From Leptolyngbyaceae cyanobacterium (GTDB lineage: Bacteria > Cyanobacteriota > Cyanobacteriia > Phormidesmidales > Phormidesmidaceae), in NCBI GenBank assembly GCA_050331235.1, contig JBHJHA010000027.1, forward strand, positions 1 to 64,000: a stretch of 64,000 nt of DNA. The letters are read 5' to 3'. The position numbers and the translations under genes are program-made. Positions 1-40,417 of the stretch are shown here, in pieces. The notes below the pieces were generated by a model that was not told where the DNA came from, searched no databases, and worked only from the letters and a program-made list of their open reading frames with translations. Positions within the stretch are counted from its first letter, which is position 1, and each line of letters begins with the position of its first letter.

Positions 1-1839
1 TTACAAGTGCAGCAACTAACTCGTAAGGAATGTTTTCGGCCAAGCTATTCAAAGAAGCCCTTATAAGCGCATAACGACACTGCAGCGCAATCGCCTGGGC
101 GGGGGATTCTTTATACAGGTCTTTTGCCAGTCGCCAAGCACGCGCTACATCTCCGACAAAGCTAGCTGTTTGTTCTAGGGCAACACAAGCTTTATACCAG
201 CCGTTTCTACCCTCAGGAGTATCCTCTTGCAAGAGCTGATGAATCTGGTCGAACTGCTCCGCCTGCTCCAGGTGCCAAGTCAGGTGAGCATGGATATAGC
301 CATCGTCAGACAAGGTATGCCATTGCTCATCGAGCGTTTTCTCGCGATACCGCTCGATGATTTGCTGATGCGCCTCTGCTCTCGTAAGTCCTAAGCCCGG
401 TAAGTCACTGGCTTGCTCTGGATGTTGGGGACTGGTTAGAAGCTTTTGAGCCAGGTCATGCATCAAGTCATGCATGCGATAGGTGACTCGCTGGCACGAT
501 TGCTGTCCACTTTTCAACAGCAGCGCTTTAGCACTAAAGATCCGCAAAATTGCTCCGGCGGTTCGCTTAGAAACCTGCCAGAGGGTCGTGGCCATTTCTT
601 GGGTCAGAGTGACATCCTCGGGAACTACCCCGAGCCAGGCAAAGTGCCGGAGCTGCTCCGGTGTCAATTGCTTCAGGCTGAGCTTAAAACAGGCCGTCAA
701 GCTGTATTTTCGGCGTTTGGTATCTTCTGGGATGTCATCTTGACTGTATAGATCTAGGGTTTCGAGCCGGGCCACTTCGGTTTTAAAGTCTTCCAGCAGT
801 TCCGTCCAGGTGACGCCTTCCTCAATTTGAGAGGCTGTTAGTTCTAAGGCTAGCGGCAAGTATCCGACTCGCTCAGCAAATAGGAGTGCTTGCTGCTGTT
901 CCTGCTCATCCAGCGCCCTGCCCAGCTTTTGAGTCATCAACGCCAGAGATTGCTCTGGGCTCATCACATCTAGGGGATAGCGACGCGCTTGGGGAATGCG
1001 GGCCTCACGTGTAGTGATTAGTACACAGCAGTTTGAACTGCCAACACGAAATAACTCAGCATGCTCTGGATTCCAGACATCATCTACAACCAGCAGCATT
1101 CGTTTATCTGCTAGCAAAGTTCTGAGATGTGCAGACGCGGCAGTTTCGGTAATGGGTTGATAGCTATGATCGCCAAGGGTTTGAATCCAGTGACTTAAGT
1201 GAGCTAGGATGTCAGGCTGTTGTCCTAATGGAGCCCACAGAACACCGTCACAATATCGGTCTACAACATCTTGGTCATGAGCCAGCTTCATGGCCATTAC
1301 TGATTTTCCAATACCACCTAAGCCATGTATTGCACTTACCACTAACGTGCCAGGGTGGTTGGCTGCATCTTCCAGCAAAATTTTTTTGACCGCATTCTGA
1401 TGCTCAGGTCTCTCAACAAAATGATAAGGCAGGGGTGGCGCTTGAAAAGGCACTCCGACGGGTGGCCTAAACGATTGAGATTGCTGAGACTTAGTTGAGC
1501 TTATGGATGATTCACTCTGATCTGCTATTCCTTGGTAAACATCTAGGACATTGGTACTAGGTAAACCGTAATCAACAGATTCAAGGGTTAACTCAAAAGC
1601 CCGAAACAAGTCTTCGATTTTTGATCTATCTACTCCGGCCTGGGCTTGGCGAATTTTTTTGATGGTTTTAATGCTAAGGTGCGATCGCTCCTCCAGCTCT
1701 GCCTGAGTGAAGCGCTTGCCATCCTTTTCCCGTTCTTGGGCTGCTGCGATCGCGGCTTCTAACCTTTCTTTGCCGTGATTGGTGAGAACAACACCACGTT
1801 GACGCTTGCTTATAGGACTTTGGGGGCAGATGACGACAC
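1..1839 (-). CDS. HTH + NB-ARC (STAND NTPase) protein with APAF-1-like helical region; 3' end lies outside the window
   Basis: Not in the ORF track. Manual translation: KRQRGVVLTNHGKERL..FTQAELEERSHLSIKTIKKI (HTH), IHGLGGIGKS (Walker A), LLVVDDVW (Walker B), VLITTR, GYLPLAL, YRMHDLMHDLA (MHD). Likely GTG start at 1839 is one base out of frame at a C5 run. Confidence 0.88.
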
Positions 1840-2066
1840 AGGAGAATCGGATAGTTAGCGTAAAGTTCTGCGTGCTTGCATCGACTATATTCGATCTTTC
1901 CGGAATGTGTCTAGACGCTGAAACTCATATAAATAGAGCGTTACGTCAGGCACAAAGTAGTCTGTGAAAAGTTTCTAGCAACTTTCGCTTAAGGCACTCA
2001 AGTTTCCTGGTGGAATCGTGGCGGTTTTTCAATACTGGCCTCATGTTCAGCTTTGAGGAAACCGTC

Positions 2067-2453
2067 ATGTTGAAATCAACCGTTTTAGGATTAGGCACGT
2101 TTGCGCTGCTCTCGCCTGTCAGCGCTGCTGTGATGCCGATGGAACTGGCTCAAACACCTCCTGCTCCATTGGTAACTGAGATTTGCGGCGTCGATAAGTC
2201 GTGGACAGCAGGATTTCGCATTGGTGAAACAGTGCCGCTTGATCCTAGCCAGTATCACCGGGCGGTGACGATCACAAAAACACCGCTGCGAGCCGGTTAT
2301 GGCTTTGAGGGACCAGTCATCGCTGACTTGGCAGTGGGGGCTCAAGTCACCGTCATGGGTGAAGTCTGGGATATGGGCTGCAACCAGTGGATGGTTGTCC
2401 CTGCGGACGGGGGAGTCGCCTATATCCATGGCAATGCTTTGCAGAACCTCTAA
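2067..2453 (+). CDS. Secreted protein with bacterial SH3-like domain
   Basis: GAGG RBS before ATG 2067; signal peptide MLKSTVLGLGTFALLSPVSA; LRAGYG..VIADLAVGAQVTV..W..V....VAYIH pattern of SH3b domains. Confidence 0.7.
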   Translation: MLKSTVLGLGTFALLSPVSAAVMPMELAQTPPAPLVTEICGVDKSWTAGFRIGETVPLDPSQYHRAVTITKTPLRAGYGFEGPVIADLAVGAQVTVMGEVWDMGCNQWMVVPADGGVAYIHGNALQNL

Positions 2454-2545
2454 TCCAGATTCATTGGAGGGCATCGACTGTACTGCTCTCCCGACTTTCT
2501 TAAACTAGCGAACCGCTACAGACATCAACTCAAGGGATAAACACC

Positions 2546-2782
2546 ATGATGCGACAACAGCATTCCTATAGTTGGCTCTTTAAGGCAGCCACAATATCGT
2601 TGAAATATTTTTTGCTGGGGTTGGCCGGTTGTACGGTGACGTATGTCTTGGCCCATGTGCTCAGCTTTGGAGGCCTCGCCAGCCTGATGGTCTTGCTGTT
2701 AGAAAAACTGGCGCTGCGGGCGTTGGTGGTGGTGTTTTGCTTGGGGGCGATCGCCGTCATCACCGAATCTCTCCGAAATTAA
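2546..2782 (+). CDS. Small membrane protein
   Basis: 78 aa, two to three hydrophobic helices, AGGGA upstream. Confidence 0.65.
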   Translation: MMRQQHSYSWLFKAATISLKYFLLGLAGCTVTYVLAHVLSFGGLASLMVLLLEKLALRALVVVFCLGAIAVITESLRN

Positions 2783-2831
2783 AGCCCGTTATCTCAGGGG
2801 GCCACCATTGCTGTTCAATTTTAAGGTGCCT

Positions 2832-2999
2832 ATGAATCGCTCACTGCGGCAATATCCCCAAACAGTTAAACTCCTCGTGGTGATTGATTGCGAGAGGCCT
2901 AACCCTCAGTCGTTAGCAAAGCCTGTCCCAACTCGTTCAGCGCCTGATCCAGATCTTGAAGCCCTGTGGCTGTTGGAATTATTAATGCGCCCAGCCTAG
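2832..2999 (+). CDS. Small hypothetical protein
   Basis: AAGG before ATG 2832; follows the previous gene on the same strand. Confidence 0.4.
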   Translation: MNRSLRQYPQTVKLLVVIDCERPNPQSLAKPVPTRSAPDPDLEALWLLELLMRPA

Positions 3000-3142
3000 A
3001 TGCTTGGCCTCAGGTACGAGTCTAGGGAGCAGTGATTGCACGACAAATCGAAGCATCGTTATGTTGGCTGATAAATGTTGAGTTACTGCGGTTTTCAGGA
3101 TTGCGGATGATTCATTGACAGATACTGAGGCCGTAAAATTCT

Positions 3143-3446
3143 TTATTCGTCAGTTTCAAATAAGGCTGTCAAATCTTGATAACCACTGACGACTCGAAAA
3201 ACTTCGATCGCATCATCCAGTAGACGGTAGAAAACCAGGTATTGCTTGTAAGGCAAGCTCCGCAGATTAGGATAGAGTTCATCCCGCTTGCGGCCAATTT
3301 GAGGAAATTGGGCAATCTGCTGGAGTACCGAAAATACCACTTAGGAATGTTTCTGCACGGTCGAGGCCGCTGTCGATGGCGAGGTAGTCTGCAATCTCCT
3401 CAATATCCTGACTGGCGCGAGGGGTGATGCGGCAGACTCGACTCAT
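3143..3446 (-). pseudogene. parE: ParE/RelE family toxin, frameshifted
   Basis: ATG overlaps the antitoxin TGA; MSRVCRITPRASQDIEEIADYLA..RAETFLSG, then a frame change near 3335 into FSVLQQIAQFPQIGRKRDEL..YLVFYR..IEVFRVVSG. Confidence 0.85.
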
Positions 3447-3706
3447 GGTTCAGCGTGGCGGCTGCGAAGACGCTGACGAATGGCGTCAATTTCTGTGGAG
3501 GCTTCTAGCAATTCGCCGCGCTCAGCTTCATTCGCACCCAGCAAGACCTCATCACGCAGTTCTTCGAAACGTCCCTGATAAATCTGCTCACGCTCAGCCA
3601 ATGCTTGCAGTCCTGCCAAGAGGATGTCATCTAGAGAGGCGTATTTGCCGCTAGCAATCTGGCGATCGGCAAACTCTTGTAGTTCGAGGGGAAGGGATAA
3701 AGCCAT
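3443..3706 (-). CDS. parD: ParD-like ribbon-helix-helix antitoxin
   Basis: SLPLELQEFADRQIASGKYASLDDILLAGL motif; directly upstream of parE. Confidence 0.88.
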   Translation of the reverse strand: MALSLPLELQEFADRQIASGKYASLDDILLAGLQALAEREQIYQGRFEELRDEVLLGANEAERGELLEASTEIDAIRQRLRSRHAEP

Positions 3707-3754
3707 CGCTTTGCTAGAAGGGTTTGCTGATATGGATATCAGTTTAGCGTGTAC

Positions 3755-5412
3755 TCAGGAGAGGTTAGATGAGCCAACCTCTCCTGCTGCTGAGCTTTCC
3801 GAAAAGTGGTCAACGGCCCCTAACGCAATCATCGACGCCCGCTGCGCCTCAGTCAGCCCATGTACCCCAGTAATGTCAGTACCTTCATAGGGACGCGGTA
3901 CTGACATAGCTACTTCACATCCCCATGTTTGTACATTCCATAATCGAATTGTGCCGTCATCACCAGCACTACTAAGAATCTGACTGTCAGGGCTAAAAGA
4001 TACTGATCTGACCCCATCAGTATGGCCTTGAAGCATATTGACACATCGTATTTGGCAGATATCCCAAATACGAATGGTTGAGTCTGCACTGCCGCTGACT
4101 AAAAGGCGTCCATCAGGACTGAATGCTACTACCCTCACCCAATTTTAGTGACCCTTGAAAGTTTGGAGACATTGGTGGTTTTTGAGATTCCATATCCGAA
4201 TAGTAGAATCATGACTACCACTTGCAAGAAGCCCATCATCGGGACTAAAATCCACTGATCTATCTTCCTTTAAATGCCTTTCAGAACATTTAGTATTTGA
4301 TGATTTAGCATATCCCACAATCGAATTGTAGAATCATCACTCCCGCTTGCCAAAAGTTGACCATCAGAACTTACAGCTATTGACCAAATCCAGGTAGAAT
4401 GACCTTTCAATAAACTGAGGCAGCAATACTTTTGAGTATCCTATAATCGGATCATAGAGTCATCATTACCACTAACAATAAATTGATTAGATGGATGCCA
4501 AGCCAATGATTTTATGCCATTAATATATCCACTAAAAACATGTAAGCATTGATGTTTTCCTATATCCCAGAGTCGAACTGTAGAGTCCGAGCTTCCACTC
4601 ACGAGGAACTTGTCATCAGGACTAAAAGCAAGCGAATTAACTAAATTGGAGTGCTTGTCAAATACATGGATACATTGTTGCTTTTTTATATCCCAGAGTC
4701 GAATTGTACAATCTGCGCTTCCACTAGCAAGAAACACGCTATTGGAACTAAAAGCCAATGCTCCAACCCGATCAGTATGCTTATCAAATATATGAATACA
4801 TTGCTGCTTCTTTATATCCCAGAGACGTATTGTACAATCGTCACTGCTACTTGCAAGATACTTCCCGTCTGGACTTAATGCCACAACCCAAACCCAATTG
4901 GTATGTTGATTGACTACGTCGCAGCAGCAGCCTTTCTGGATATCCCATAATCGAATTGTATGATCTTCACCACCACTGAAAATGAAAAAGCCATCAGGGC
5001 TAAAGACCACTGATCTTACTCCCTTTATATGTCCTCTAAATGTGTTCTGACATTCAAATTTTTCCATATCCCACAATCGAATTGTAGAATCTGCACTGCA
5101 ACTCACAAGCAAGCGACCGTCAAAATTGAAGGATAGCGATCTAACTTCACCTGTATGCCCTCTAAGAACACAAATACATGAGTATTTTTCTACGTCCCAA
5201 ATTCGGACTGTAGAGTCTGTACTGCCACTAGCAAGGGTTTATTATCAGGGCTAAAACGGACTGATCTCACCCAGTTTTTATGCTCTTTAAAGGTAATCAG
5301 ATGCTGTCTTTTTTTAATGTTCCAAAGCTGTATTTCGCAGTTGGCACCACCTATCGCTAAAAGCTTACCATCAGAGCTATAATCAACTCCGTAAATGCGA
5401 TCAAAAGCCCCT
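3755..5412 (-). pseudogene. WD40 beta-propeller region of an NB-ARC/NACHT-WD40 gene; 5'-truncated and disrupted several times
   Basis: About a dozen GH..WV.SV.FSPDG..LASGS.D.TIRLWD repeats; stops at 4145-4147 and 4441-4443 plus frameshifts; C-terminal RPYEGTDITGVHGLTEAQRASMIALGA typical of cyanobacterial STAND-WD40 proteins. Confidence 0.9.
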
Positions 5413-5413
5413 C

Positions 5414-7015
5414 TTGAATGGTGATCCTATTTTTCGAAAACGAGCTTTAGAAGTCATTGCAAGAGTTGAACTCGGCTCTGAAAGCGTAGTAAATGCAACA
5501 ATTAGAATTACACTTCATGATTCAGATTGGCAAACCAGAAGTAACGCTAACGTCGCTTTGATATCAATCGGTAATTCTGCAGTCGTTCGTGCACTTAGCT
5601 ACATTCTTGAGGAAGATGATTTTGAGATATCAAGATAACTTCCAGTCACACAATAGCAATTGGATGCCTATGCCAGATAAGTAGCAGAGAATCTCTACCG
5701 ACATTGATAAAGGTTCTACTTGACGAAAGCAAGGGCATCGTAATTCGCGGATACGCTATACGAGCTTTAGGTGAAATCGGTGATGCATCTGTAATTCCGG
5801 TACTCATGAAGTATCTTGCACCTGATGAGAGTGATTTTATATATCGCGAGAGTCTCTTTGCTTTAGGAAAACTAGGGTTAACACACCTTGAAGATAAAAT
5901 CATCTCAATTGCCATAAGACACACAGAGCCAGATGTTCGAAAAGATGCTGTAAAGGTTCTAGGGAAAATATTTACTCAGAAATCTCAGCAGGGACTTCAA
6001 GAAGCCCTTAAAGATCCAGATTTCATCGTCCGTTTCACCTCTGCCGTGTTTCTGGCAAAACAAAAACATACAGGAAGTATTCCAACCCTGATTGAAGGCC
6101 TGGGGTGTAGAAGTTCTCTCGGTTTTGAGGACTATACAGTTTGTCGAGATGCTATCGATGCTTTGTATGAGGTAAGTGGAGATGCATATTCATCTTTAGA
6201 GTATGCTTTCAAGCACCATAAGGATTTTCAAGTGAGGCGTAACGCTAAACTAGCTATCGATAAAATCAAAGGCTTACCCACTCAAGAAAATTATGTAGAA
6301 AGGACATTAAAAGAAATTAGCGAAAAATACAATTTTGCTGAATTACTTGAAATTTTGAATATTGCTAATACGGATAATGATTGGCAGTTTGCTTCAGCTC
6401 TTCGGGAAAAATGTGAAGCTGAGCATATGAGTTCTTTATATGAAGCAATCCTGCAATCTGGCTCGAATAGTGTTTTCAAATATGTTCCAAATTTAATTAG
6501 TACAATTCAAACCGATTGTAGGTTTTACAACTACGAGATTGCCTACGACATCATTCCCTAAGGCAAAACAGTTTCCCTCTACTTCTCCTACGCCCCCGCC
6601 GCCGAACCTCTGCAAACCCAACTCACCCTGCTCGAACGCCAGGGCGTCATCACCAGTTGGAGTCAGCGCCAAGTTCTTCCCGGCGACGATCGCGCCCGAG
6701 TCATCAACCAGCAGCTCAATACCGCCGACATCATTCTGCTGCTGATCAGCGCCAACTCCCTCGCCGACAAAACCTGCTACACCCTTGAAATTCAACGGGC
6801 AATCGAACGCCACCAGACAGGCGAGGCTCGCGTCATCCTCATTCTGTTGCGTCCCGTAGATTGGTATGGTGCGCCTTTTAGTCAGCTTGAAGTGTTCCAA
6901 AAACCATCAGCCCATCACTACCTGGGCTAACCAAGACGCAGCATTTCAAGAAATTGCTGAGGGTATTCGAGCAGTCGCGCTTGATTTGCAACAGCGGAAT
7001 CCAACCTCCCCGTGA
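5414..7015 (+). pseudogene. HEAT-repeat + C-terminal TIR protein; 5'-truncated and disrupted
   Basis: HEAT repeats (DVRKDAVKVLG, VRFTSAVFLA); break near 5638; TAA 6559-6561 is followed in frame by SLYFSYA..LERQGVITSW..ADIILLLISAN..CYTLEIQRAIER..VILILLRPVDW; frameshift near 6898; ends TGA 7015. Confidence 0.85.
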
Positions 7016-7156
7016 ATTTCCAGCATCACAAAAGCTCATCCATTGACTGAAGGGCAGCGGTGTTCCACGACGATTCTTCCTCCAGTGGCATCTTGACTCG
7101 CTTTTTGAGCAAAATTGAACTTAAACGTCTTCCTAATCCGTTGAGGCAAAGTATTC

Positions 7157-7642
7157 ATGACTTCTGTCTCCGAAGTGCCCTCACAACTGCGTTCCTACGG
7201 TCACCGTGGAGCCTACAGCGAATTGACTCACTACGCTGATGAGCTGCCCCCTGCGGTTAAACAGACTCCTTTAGTTTCTCTGGAATTGTCGCGGGCTTTT
7301 CTGCGCCAAGGTCGTCCCATTGATGCCGAAGCAGTTCTAACCTCCGCAAATTTGGCAACAGCCACTCCCGGAGCACAGCTGATCTTAGCCCTGGAAAAGG
7401 CCTCTCTGAGCATTTATCGACAGATGGCAATTCAGGCCGCGCTGCAAGCGGCGCAGGCAGCATTTGCCGCAGCAGAAATCCAGACCATTGACCCGGCTGA
7501 TCGCGCCGAAGCCGATCGCGTTCATATCCGCATTCTGTTGACAGCCGCCACCTACTTTGAGATCTCCCCAGAGCAAGGCCAACAGGCACGAGATCGGCTG
7601 CCTGCGATCGCCAAAATCCTGCCCCATACCAAGTATCACTGA
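7157..7642 (+). pseudogene. N-terminal fragment of a helical (TPR-like) protein, probably truncated
   Basis: Ala/Leu-rich amphipathic helices ending abruptly in HTKYH*. Confidence 0.45.
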
Positions 7643-8107
7643 AAGGTGCAGAAAACGGGGGTAGGCAAGAAGCTTGCCCAATGGTAGTTTCGAGAAAATC
7701 TAGACCAACGAGATGGCATTGGTTCAAAACAGGTTGTAACACTCACCTTACCTGCAATTGGCCAGGTGACCGGCACCGTTATTGTGAGTGCTCGTCTGGC
7801 CCAGCCAGGACTGCAAGGTGGGCTTGAAGCTATCCACGATTTGCCCCTGAGGTCTACACCTGAAGAGCGGTTTTACCCCATCGCCTTTGAAATTCCCCAA
7901 GCGTCTAGAGGTGATTTGGCTAGGTTTTTCAGCTTTGTTTGATGCCAACGAGAACGATTTCGGCCCGAGAGTATTCGACAAATGGTCGAGTACTCCTATG
8001 GTGCATCTATGTAGCTCAAGATACCTGTATCTACACCAGTAGTTTCATCAAGCTCATAAAAAATAGCCTGAAACGACGAAATTCCGTTTATCAGGTTGGA
8101 CATTTTA

Positions 8108-8127
8108 TTGGGGTAAATTTGGGGTAA
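8108..8127 (+). repeat. Tandem TTGGGGTAA direct repeats, possible integrase arm-type sites
   Basis: Copies at 8108-8116 and 8119-8127 (11-bp period), about 50 bp from the tRNA fragment. Confidence 0.5.
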
Positions 8128-8175
8128 TTAAATTTTGATGTCACTCAAATTACGTTCCTGCATAAATTGACCACC

Positions 8176-8220
8176 CGATTCGTAATCGAGCGGTCGCGGG
8201 TTCAAATCCCGCCATCGGCT
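8176..8220 (+). tRNA. 3' half of tRNA-Thr(CGT); att-site fragment, not a complete gene
   Basis: CGA-TTCGTAA-TCG anticodon arm (CGT), T arm GCGGG-TTCAAAT-CCCGC, acceptor strand CATCGGC-T; no D arm or 5' acceptor strand upstream. Confidence 0.9.
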
Positions 8221-8440
8221 TAGACGTTTGTAAATTTGTTGTACGTTCGCAAATTATATGTCGCAGTTCGCAGATTGATGTCGCTATTGCAGGAAAAGCG
8301 ACCTTAACCGTGGTCCTTAGCGATTTCATGTCGCAAAATTCAGTTTTCGTGCTCTTTGCAGAATAATGTCGCGAAATCCGTCTTCATTTTCATGCGTGCA
8401 CTTACCTGTCAGCCACACTTAATTGCTAAACACTCTGCTT

Positions 8441-8470
8441 ATTACGAATCGAGTGCTCCTTTCAGCTTCC
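8441..8470 (-). CRISPR. Delocalised homing crRNA: truncated repeat + 18-nt spacer against tRNA-Thr(CGT)
   Basis: Minus strand GGAAGCTGAAAG-GAGCACTCGATTCGTAAT; spacer matches 8169-8186 at 16/18 positions. Confidence 0.85.
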
Positions 8471-8532
8471 TTTTTAAATTTCTGAGTTCTGGCAAAAGTA
8501 AATATCTGGTTTGAGATTGAGACAACATCCTG

Positions 8533-8569
8533 CTCTCAACTCCTCTTCGGATGAAGGAGAGATCGCGAT
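8533..8569 (-). CRISPR. Single 37-nt type V-K-like CRISPR repeat (array remnant)
   Basis: Minus strand ATCGCGATCTCTCCTTCATCCGAAGAGGAGTTGAGAG: 37 nt, internal hairpin, end one base from GTTGAAAG, same orientation as the homing crRNA. Confidence 0.7.
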
Positions 8570-8816
8570 CGCTATAAAAGGTGGTCCTACCTTCAGCCTC
8601 TATGGGTTCAACGATCTAGGCATAACTAGCGATGCTTGGGATACGAAAGGCGTTGCTAAAGGTAATGGCAATGCAGAGCCCGGTTTGCCTAACTTCTCTA
8701 TTTATGTAAAGCGTGGTGATGGTGGTGACAACCCCACTATCCCCGAGCCGGCAGCAATGGCGGGACTATTGGCTGTGGGTGCGGGTATGGTGGCCAGCCG
8801 TCGTAAGCGAGCTTAA
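8565..8816 (+). pseudogene. 5'-truncated PEP-CTERM protein
   Basis: AIAIKGGPTFSLY..IPEPAAMAGLLAVGAGMVASRRKRA; no signal peptide; aligns with the C-terminal half of the neighbouring paralogue. Confidence 0.85.
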
Positions 8817-38752: not shown

Positions 38753-40417
38753 TCAAGGCAGAAATTCATCTACCGCTGGGGGCAGTTCACGCACTAGGTG
38801 AAAATCGAACGGCGCCTGACTCGTGGTTTCGACGTAGGCCGGGGTCAGGTAGGGCGCAAATTCAGTTTGATCGGCTAGGTAAATTTTGCTGAAGGCCACG
38901 ATTAACGCTTTGTTGAGATTGCGGCTAATCACCATCCCTTCATCAATGCCTTGCTCAAACTGCTGCTCTAAGTTGAAAAGTCGGCTCGTTAGTCCCGTAA
39001 AGCCCGGACTGTGGGAAGTGTTTTCCGCCAGGTAGAGATACTTATCACTCCCGGATAACCAGCTAAAAGTCGTCACCTGCTGGGGCACTACCGGAGCCAA
39101 AATATCAAAGGCTCCACCTTCCATCATGACGGGCACCTGAATTTGGCTGATGCCAGTCTCTCCAAAAATATTGCTCACCGGGGAAAACGCCATAACTAAA
39201 GCAACTCGGCGATCGCGGACGCCCTCAACCCCCAGCTGCTAAACGATCGCGGGGTCATCCTGGAGTTCCAGGGCGCGGCACTCCAGCACCATGGCGGCAT
39301 CGATCACGATGTTGGCATTGGGGTCACAGCGCTCAGTCAAACGAGCAAAATCGATGGTGGCGCCCCCCAAGGCCAAGACGGTATATTCCCCGAAGGAATG
39401 TCCGGCAACAGCCACTTGCTCAAGATTTAGTCGGCCTTGATATTGGGTAGCGTTCAGCCGTTCTAGCTCATCCAGCAGGAAGGTGATATCCAGCGGTCGA
39501 TTGAGAAAGTCGCGGGCATCAAAGTATTCATCGGTGAGCCCCGCAAATAATGCTTGGCGATAGTCCAGGTTGCTCCCGACGTGATCGGGCAGGGCTACGG
39601 CAAAGCCATGGGAAGCGACGTGACGGGCAATGTCAAAAAAACTGCTGCGGGTGTCTCCTAACCCGTGGGAGAGGACCAGCACCGGCCAAGGTTCACGGGC
39701 CGGGTCGACTCGCTGCGGCCAAAACAGCGTTGCGGGATAGGTGCGATCGCCCCGGGCCGCATCTTGCAGGGTAAGGTCTTGCTGCTGTACGGAGTAGGGG
39801 CCCGGTTGAATGAGGTCGGGTCGCCCGGAAAGATCGGGTAGGGGATTGGCGGCCGCTGCCGTCTGGGAAGCTTGCTTGACCGCTTCTACTACCGCAAGGG
39901 CGCGATCGGCCTCGGCAATCACTTCCCGCGTACTGCGAATTAGCAACGGGAGGTCAACGCGCAGCACCTCAGTGGGATAGTGGCGCATGATATCGAGCGC
40001 CGATGTTTGGCCATCTTCGGCCGCTGCACTGATAATGGCTGCGCGCAACGCCATTTGACCGTTGAGCCGCGCCCCAGTAGGAAATAAGCGCCCGACAAAC
40101 TGTAACGTGCGCTCGCCCATGGGAGCGTAATACCAGCGAGACAGGGCGACTACATCGGCTTCCCGCTCAGCGGTGAGTGCCTGACGCAAGTCAGCCTGGC
40201 GCTCCGGACTCAACCGAGATAAAAACTGCGCTAGGTCTGAAGTTTCGTCCCCTTGTTCGGCATAGGCGGTGAGGTCATCAACTGCAACTGAGCGGCTAAA
40301 GGGACCAAAATCGAAGACAACTGTTTCCGCGGCGGCAGTTGGCAGTGCCCCGAGGGCGATCGCGGTCAGCCCACCAAGGAAGGCACTGACTTCTTGCCGC
40401 GTCAATGATCTAGGCAT
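38753..40417 (-). pseudogene. DUF1400 + alpha/beta hydrolase, split by one in-frame TAG
   Basis: DDPAIV*QLGVEGVRDRRVALVMAFSP reads through 39239-39241 into ORF 38753-39193; SHGLG and GHSFG motifs. Confidence 0.85.

Follow-up and report, generated by a model that had tools for sequence, protein, structure and literature searches.

A type V-K CAST left end and its homing guide behind a displaced tRNA-Thr(CGT) fragment in a Leptolyngbyaceae genome

Results

Organization of the locus

The window, i.e., the whole stretch of 64,000 nucleotides analyzed here, harbors a single end of a type V-K CAST, preceded by a 3' piece of a tRNA gene and followed by a truncated CRISPR repeat with an anchor spacer and by a truncated PEP-CTERM gene (Table 1). 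Within the first 8 kb, NB-ARC-like, ParE, WD40, and HEAT ORFs were found, several of them in pieces and partly with a GC content of 40-46%. Read as island cargo, positions 1-7700 comprise an NB-ARC-like ORF of at least 641 codons running off the window start, a ParE-type toxin and its likely antitoxin, a HEAT-repeat ORF, and WD40 ORFs that are split. Downstream of the PEP-CTERM gene follow GIDE (present in 9 of the 11 genus genomes searched), a carotenoid oxygenase (11 of 11), and then glutamate synthase.

Table 1. Coordinates of the features around the CAST end (window numbering)
Feature	Position	Strand	Remark
Direct-repeat motif in the island arm, likely integrase arm-binding site, outside the CAST	8105..8127	+	two copies in the genome
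Displaced 3' fragment of tRNA-Thr(CGT), island att junction	8169..8221	+	96% over 53 nt to C20:2653-2601
Candidate target-site duplication TTTGT, 5 bp adjoining the terminus	8235..8239	+	
Type V-K CAST left end	8240..8372	+	TGT terminus, four putative TnsB-type sites, spacing as in three left ends
Four putative TnsB sites (direct repeats ending ATGTCGC)	8246-8264, 8267-8284, 8317-8334, 8355-8372	+	
Anchor (homing) spacer	8441..8458	-	18/18 to intact tRNA-Thr(CGT) C20:2653-2636, PAM GTA
Truncated CRISPR repeat (R*), ends GAAAG, directly precedes the anchor spacer	8459..8470	-	
Likely last residual element DNA	8471..8521	.	diverged sibling keeps homology there
5'-truncated PEP-CTERM gene, host side of the break	8559..8816	+	TIGR02595 above cut-off

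The end and its homing guide

The original prediction had described a TGTAC terminus preceded by TTTGT, and both were confirmed at 8240 and 8235-8239, respectively. The four repeats it listed are likewise present and all end in ATGTCGC; the pattern in which they had been written, with a 2-base gap, matches 0 times, the real gap being 6-7 bases. GC-N6-ATGTCGC occurs four times in the 64 kb window compared with 0.69 expected, a number reached by none of 100 shuffles, and three of these four occurrences lie inside the CAST end. A 46-nt matrix was built solely from 24 ends of other genomes, several of them next to cas12k or tnsB; these ends themselves score 51.5-81.6 bits. The window end falls inside this training range with 63.3 bits, and the runner-up site in the whole genome scores 5.3 bits. 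By eye, positions 8221-8239 faintly resemble the first end unit.

The site spacing equals that of three left ends (G008, L041, and L045) and is unlike that of six right ends, which identifies the window piece as a left end. On the basis of this spacing together with the anchor guide, we assign 8240-8372 as a left end.

In the published V-K layout (PMC9938897), the left end stands behind a tRNA and is accompanied by an R* of ~12 nt and a 17-nt anchor spacer, whose protospacer carries a GTN PAM 46-82 nt from the end. The clue to such an anchor guide in the window was an inverted match between 8169-8186 and 8441-8458. Over 17 nt the spacer is unchanged in all eight aligned loci, and full repeats with the same 3' end as R* come next in the related loci L044, L045, and G120. 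The guide, absent from the original prediction, is the strongest evidence for the CAST end. The assignment to type V-K thus holds, upheld by the terminus, the sites, the matrix score, the anchor guide, and the gene linkage in relatives described below.

The target tRNA and a tyrosine-integrase island

An intact tRNA-Thr(CGT) gene is located on another contig (C20:2602-2673). Allowing up to two mismatches, the guide has three sites genome-wide: the guide itself, the C20 tRNA, and the copy at 8169, which shows two mismatches and ATT where the GTN PAM is expected. Hence, the anchor target is the tRNA gene with its GTN PAM on C20 and is not adjacent to the end. The 71 bp originally proposed between terminus and protospacer start are arithmetically correct (8240-8169), but 8169 belongs to a PAM-less displaced tRNA fragment and is not the target. 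Measured on this fragment, the end lies 71 nt from the PAM position, inside the published 46-82 nt and also inside the 56-72 bp of the 17 family ends behind intact tRNAs. The expectation of a tRNA gene just upstream of the end did not stand up: ARAGORN finds no intact tRNA gene in the window, only the 53-nt 3' piece, and Rfam gives only a weak T-loop match. Behind the C20 tRNA, no CAST end was found, C37-type ends (see below) included.

The 23-nt arm motif has exactly two copies in the genome (at most three mismatches), one in the window and one at C20:2486-2464, where it lies between the intact tRNA-Thr and an integrase gene in the same orientation to the tRNA as in the window. This integrase ORF of 371 codons behind the tRNA yields weak matches to XerC/XerD models, all of them below cut-off. 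In a related genome (G187), tRNA, integrase (66% identical), ~28 kb, fragment, and CAST end follow each other on one contig with their own paired arm motif; a second relative (G120) has the same arrangement on two contigs with a different paired arm motif. In the genome studied here, tRNA and integrase are located on C20 and the fragment on C27, so that the island span is inferred across contigs. The 8169 fragment would mark the distal boundary of a tyrosine-integrase island that likely recombined into the tRNA when the CAST was already in place.

Two further loci (L014 and L015, in G009 and G014) contain the same arm as window 8058-8188, stopping at the anticodon loop; there it is inverted and 1.5-2.3 kb from a related integrase. 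Moreover, G011:C1:24123-26819 is the same integrase island start as C20:1-2696, with 91% DNA identity compared with ~70-79% in core genes, which we read as a sign of recent horizontal spread.

The end family in other genomes

A DNA search of 172 other genomes of the order returned matches to the family of the window end in 18. R* together with the Thr spacer was found at five loci in the genome collection and gave 0 matches (R* plus anchor) in the metagenome contig collection. All five loci have the same kind of end, and two of them (L044 and L045) run on into CRISPR repeats. We inspected 30 loci of the family, judging gene linkage within the 1.5 kb fetched. Six left-end loci have cas12k within this distance, one of them being G120, whose anchor is the same Thr spacer; tnsB adjoins two right-end loci. 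Which guide is present depends on the neighboring tRNA (Thr, Val, or Ala), and the targeted position, GGTA|GAGC, is constant; in G119 the 5-bp flank TACGC is common to left and right ends. The cognate Cas12k proteins are 69-84% identical among themselves. A Cas12k search of the genomes of the five anchor-bearing loci gave a hit above cut-off in one, situated ~100 kb or more from the locus if two numberings agree and therefore excluded as linkage evidence.

Several family members deviate from the regular architecture. At L095:5640-5700 (G079:C78), a right end stands head to head with a left end missing its first bases, as if one element had entered another's tip. L085 and L075 (G107) share 9 bp, rather than 5, between left and right end flanks (reverse complement). 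At L078:302 (G100), no tRNA sequence precedes the left end, which has a Thr anchor and an altered terminus and represents an off-site or rearranged copy.

Distances were evaluated for 28 ends, with duplicates reached by two tools counted once; 22 of them follow tRNA sequence, and the remaining six, which are right-end types, were left out of the distance count, as were L037 (diverged, no tRNA) and L078. The 17 ends behind intact tRNAs lie at 56-72 bp, and the five behind fragments at 54, 60, 65, 70, and 71 bp. All fragments derive from tRNA-Thr(CGT), i.e., 5 of 11 Thr ends compared with 0 of 11 Val/Ala ends, and the pattern involves at least four different arm types; the corresponding Fisher p of 0.035 is overstated, as kin are not independent and the same island family occurs in the window and in G008. 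None of the five fragments has a GTN PAM and four are mismatched in the first seven positions, while the L045 fragment retains a perfect protospacer. Distances behind fragments (54-71) show more scatter than those behind intact tRNA-Thr (56-60; Levene p 0.024); against all 17 intact sites, p is 0.31, the intact Val/Ala sites ranging from 59 to 72 bp.

The break and the missing parts

Homology to PEP-CTERM begins at 8559 and the frame opens only at 8502; homologs of the genus have open frames of 197-266 aa. On the other side, a diverged sibling is homologous over 8433-8521 in one sequencing run (X1) and over 8433-8508 in another (X2). Taken together, sibling homology up to 8521 and PEP-CTERM homology from 8559 place the break at ~8521-8558. 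The sibling copy in X1/X2 is ~88% identical over 8433-8521, covering anchor, R*, and flank; after the tRNA-Thr 3' end it has ~200 unlike bases, and we read it as a relative that occurs alongside and has another end at this site. One public contig covers 8192 to beyond 10600 with no gap, and two more bridge 8356-8586 and 8373-8523. These contigs come from three DNA runs of one study, possibly including the source sample, and thus back the assembly rather than representing independent occurrence.

As originally stated, the window contains no tnsB, tnsC, tniQ, or cas12k: a Pfam search of 42 window ORFs returned none of these families. No partner end had been seen in the window either, and none was found genome-wide by blastn, by an 8-site matrix, by the matrix of 24 foreign ends, or by the ACAAA-TGT pattern, the latter representing an end-like inverted terminus followed by TTTGT. 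CRISPR array, tracrRNA, and cas12k were not found beside the left end, and no trace of a cognate end, repeat, Cas12k, or TnsB was detected in the 4.8 Mb assembly (118 contigs, 95.5% complete). Cognate array/tracr DNA as query matched the tracr region of C37 only. The orphan status was therefore upheld for this assembly, which, with 118 contigs and 95.5% completeness, could leave missing parts unassembled. Synteny revealed no conserved right-hand neighbor of tRNA-Thr in relatives, so that deletion and rearrangement are indistinguishable.

Other tns and cas12k loci of the genome

On contig C37, a V-K element resides behind tRNA-Met (G000:C37:38710-54314), with ends at 39191 and 54211 and the duplication GGTGT. 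A single stop interrupts its cas12k in frame at codon 596 of the 631 read, and a single stop its tnsC at 120 of 273. An IS21-like sequence has inserted into the element. Immediately beyond its right end, an older left end and a piece of cas12k, both of the same family, mark a tandem insertion. The candidate anchor of the C37 element points to the T-arm of the tRNA, at a hand-counted 48 bp from the end. A second cluster, C82 (1783-5330), comprises an open tnsB of 551 codons, tnsC and tniQ with stops, and end-like repeats upstream; it is cut off at the contig start by an IscS-like fragment and an IS1-like element, and no partner for it was found.

Both loci were rejected as partners of the window end, C37 since it already has both of its own ends and a duplication, and C82 since its upstream repeats do not score, its TnsB is distant, and its tnsC and tniQ carry stops. 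The TnsB frames of the two loci are both open and 67% identical to each other, compared with 33-38% to the cognate TnsBs (C37 33-35%, C82 36-38%); C37 Cas12k is 32-35% identical to cognate Cas12k. The genes suggested to act in trans thus exist in this genome, but they belong to distant families and contain internal stops, so that, judged from sequence, action of the C37 or C82 systems on the window end is unlikely.

Discussion

A proposed history and its alternatives

It is probable that the V-K element to which this end and guide belonged originally inserted behind tRNA-Thr(CGT), was evicted by a later integrase island, and lost its remaining parts. Observed directly are the end, the guide and the tRNA that it matches perfectly, the tRNA fragment, the two copies of the arm motif, and the absence of cognate parts from the assembly; the steps themselves are reconstructed. 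Following the known mechanism, Cas12k with the anchor crRNA would have recognized the protospacer of the intact tRNA next to its GTA PAM, and TnsB/C/TniQ would have inserted the element 71 bp on, left end leading. As its anatomy suggests, a tyrosine-integrase island would then have recombined into the anticodon region of the tRNA, rebuilding tRNA, PAM, and an empty flank at C20 and leaving the old 3' fragment with the CAST end in the window. The order of the two events is indicated by the fragments lacking a GTN PAM and by the C20 tRNA having no end behind it. Finally, array, tracrRNA, cas12k, cargo, tnsBCQ, and right end would have been lost through a deletion or rearrangement at ~8521-8558 that fused the stub to the middle of the host PEP-CTERM gene. 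Since terminus, four sites, and guide are all intact, either this loss was recent or the stub was kept. With one end and no cognate TnsB, the stub is predicted to be immobile.

The break could also reflect a split by rearrangement, with array, genes, and right end surviving in unassembled DNA. The fragmented, incomplete assembly and the often poor assembly of mobile DNA would allow for this, as would the gene order near tRNA-Thr and the PEP-CTERM/GIDE block, which is not conserved in relatives. Against it, the 4.8 Mb yielded no cognate component, and the stub continues straight into host genes on a contig backed by public assembly; we assign this possibility a small probability. The order of events might likewise be reversed, with the CAST arriving after the island and inserting behind the displaced fragment in a PAM-less or guide-independent manner. 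Simple inheritance of the fragment with the end does not predict the scatter of fragment spacing relative to intact tRNA-Thr, which is a point against our preferred reading; that 5 of 11 Thr ends follow fragments and that the L045 fragment has a perfect protospacer also speak for the later arrival. However, a GTN PAM, found in nearly all natural att protospacers in the consulted part of Hsieh and Peters (10.1101/2021.02.06.429022), is missing from every fragment, most fragments are mismatched in the first seven positions, the perfect C20 target has no end behind it, and the intact Val/Ala sites themselves span 59-72 bp, rendering a later CAST very improbable.

Two further explanations concern the nature of the stub itself. 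It might persist because it still supplies a guide: the C37 V-K system would load its crRNA, which would steer that system, or plain Cas12k binding, to tRNA-Thr. The guide indeed matches its target perfectly, the same guide is kept in G008 and in the sibling copy of the runs, and a CTTTC in the C37 tracr region could pair with the GAAAG of R*. Yet the stops in C37 cas12k and tnsC, the low identity of C37 Cas12k to cognates that are far more alike mutually, the loss of tracrRNA promoter and array, with a scan near R* giving no consensus promoter above shuffles, and the C20 tRNA without a C37-type end behind it leave such a role only a remote chance. That the repeats are a chance occurrence or a transcription-factor site has nothing in its favor besides the lack of transposon genes nearby; the gap in matrix score to the next-best site, the guide layout and spacing, and the gene linkage in relatives refute this reading and reduce its probability to practically nil.

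Significance

The window stub is genuine, yet as a remnant it is ordinary and its class is known; the likely displacement of a V-K end by an island is its only mildly new aspect. On its own the stub matters little, as decayed V-K elements have already been described and it offers no genes to reuse. Incomplete elements are ascribed to inactivation and decay in the part of Hsieh and Peters considered here (10.1101/2021.02.06.429022). It does contribute a clean anchor guide against tRNA-Thr(CGT), as well as an end family for which relatives have cognate Cas12k and TnsB. Furthermore, an island between an end and its true target explains why some CAST ends seem PAM-less, and surveys limited to the neighborhood of the end misread such ends.

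A broader idea, which we regard as rather unlikely, is that V-K CASTs at tRNA-Thr(CGT) are routinely evicted by tyrosine-integrase islands that recombine between the PAM and the insertion point. A review (PMC11406308) notes that phages and ICEs use the same tRNA att sites as V-K elements, for which it also describes apparent target immunity. Under routine eviction, the CAST end would be stranded and an empty homing site rebuilt an island's length away, beyond target immunity, so that any CAST that is still active would insert at the rebuilt site, within the arm of the island itself. If true, this would amount to a recurring conflict of two mobile-element classes over one tRNA, which may drive CAST decay and guide turnover; if the pattern holds in a larger sample, it would provide a small, testable case of RNA-guided and integrase-guided competition for one tRNA. 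Our literature search found no paper on islands displacing V-K ends, and bioRxiv supplements may hold cases.

Comparison with known systems

The V-K CAST on C37 of the same genome is alike in layout, and 32 of its first 45 left-end bases are identical to the window end; it belongs to a different end family (5.3 bits) and, unlike the window stub, has both ends present. With the tRNA islands of the Islander database, as far as described in the sections of PMC4383910 used, the locus has in common a regenerated tRNA with integrase at one end and a displaced 3' fragment at the other, as well as a crossover near the anticodon; that source describes the island and not a CAST, and here the island ends lie on two contigs. 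The consulted part of the Hsieh and Peters survey (10.1101/2021.02.06.429022) makes no mention of island displacement and begins from cas12k genes, so that a gene-less stub would escape cataloguing. Its truncated repeat-spacers of Tn7-CRISPR-Cas12K elements, with a 17-bp spacer after GAAAG, a perfect tRNA match, and a GTN PAM, correspond to the arrangement found here. With AnCAST of Anabaena PCC 7120 (Ziemann et al. 2023, PMC9938897), the window stub has in common a left end behind tRNA sequence, an R* and anchor spacer that read towards this end, the GTN PAM in the tRNA, and the distance from PAM to end. It differs in that array, tracrRNA, cas12k, regulator, tnsBCQ, and right end are absent and that a displaced piece of the tRNA, instead of the tRNA gene, precedes the end.
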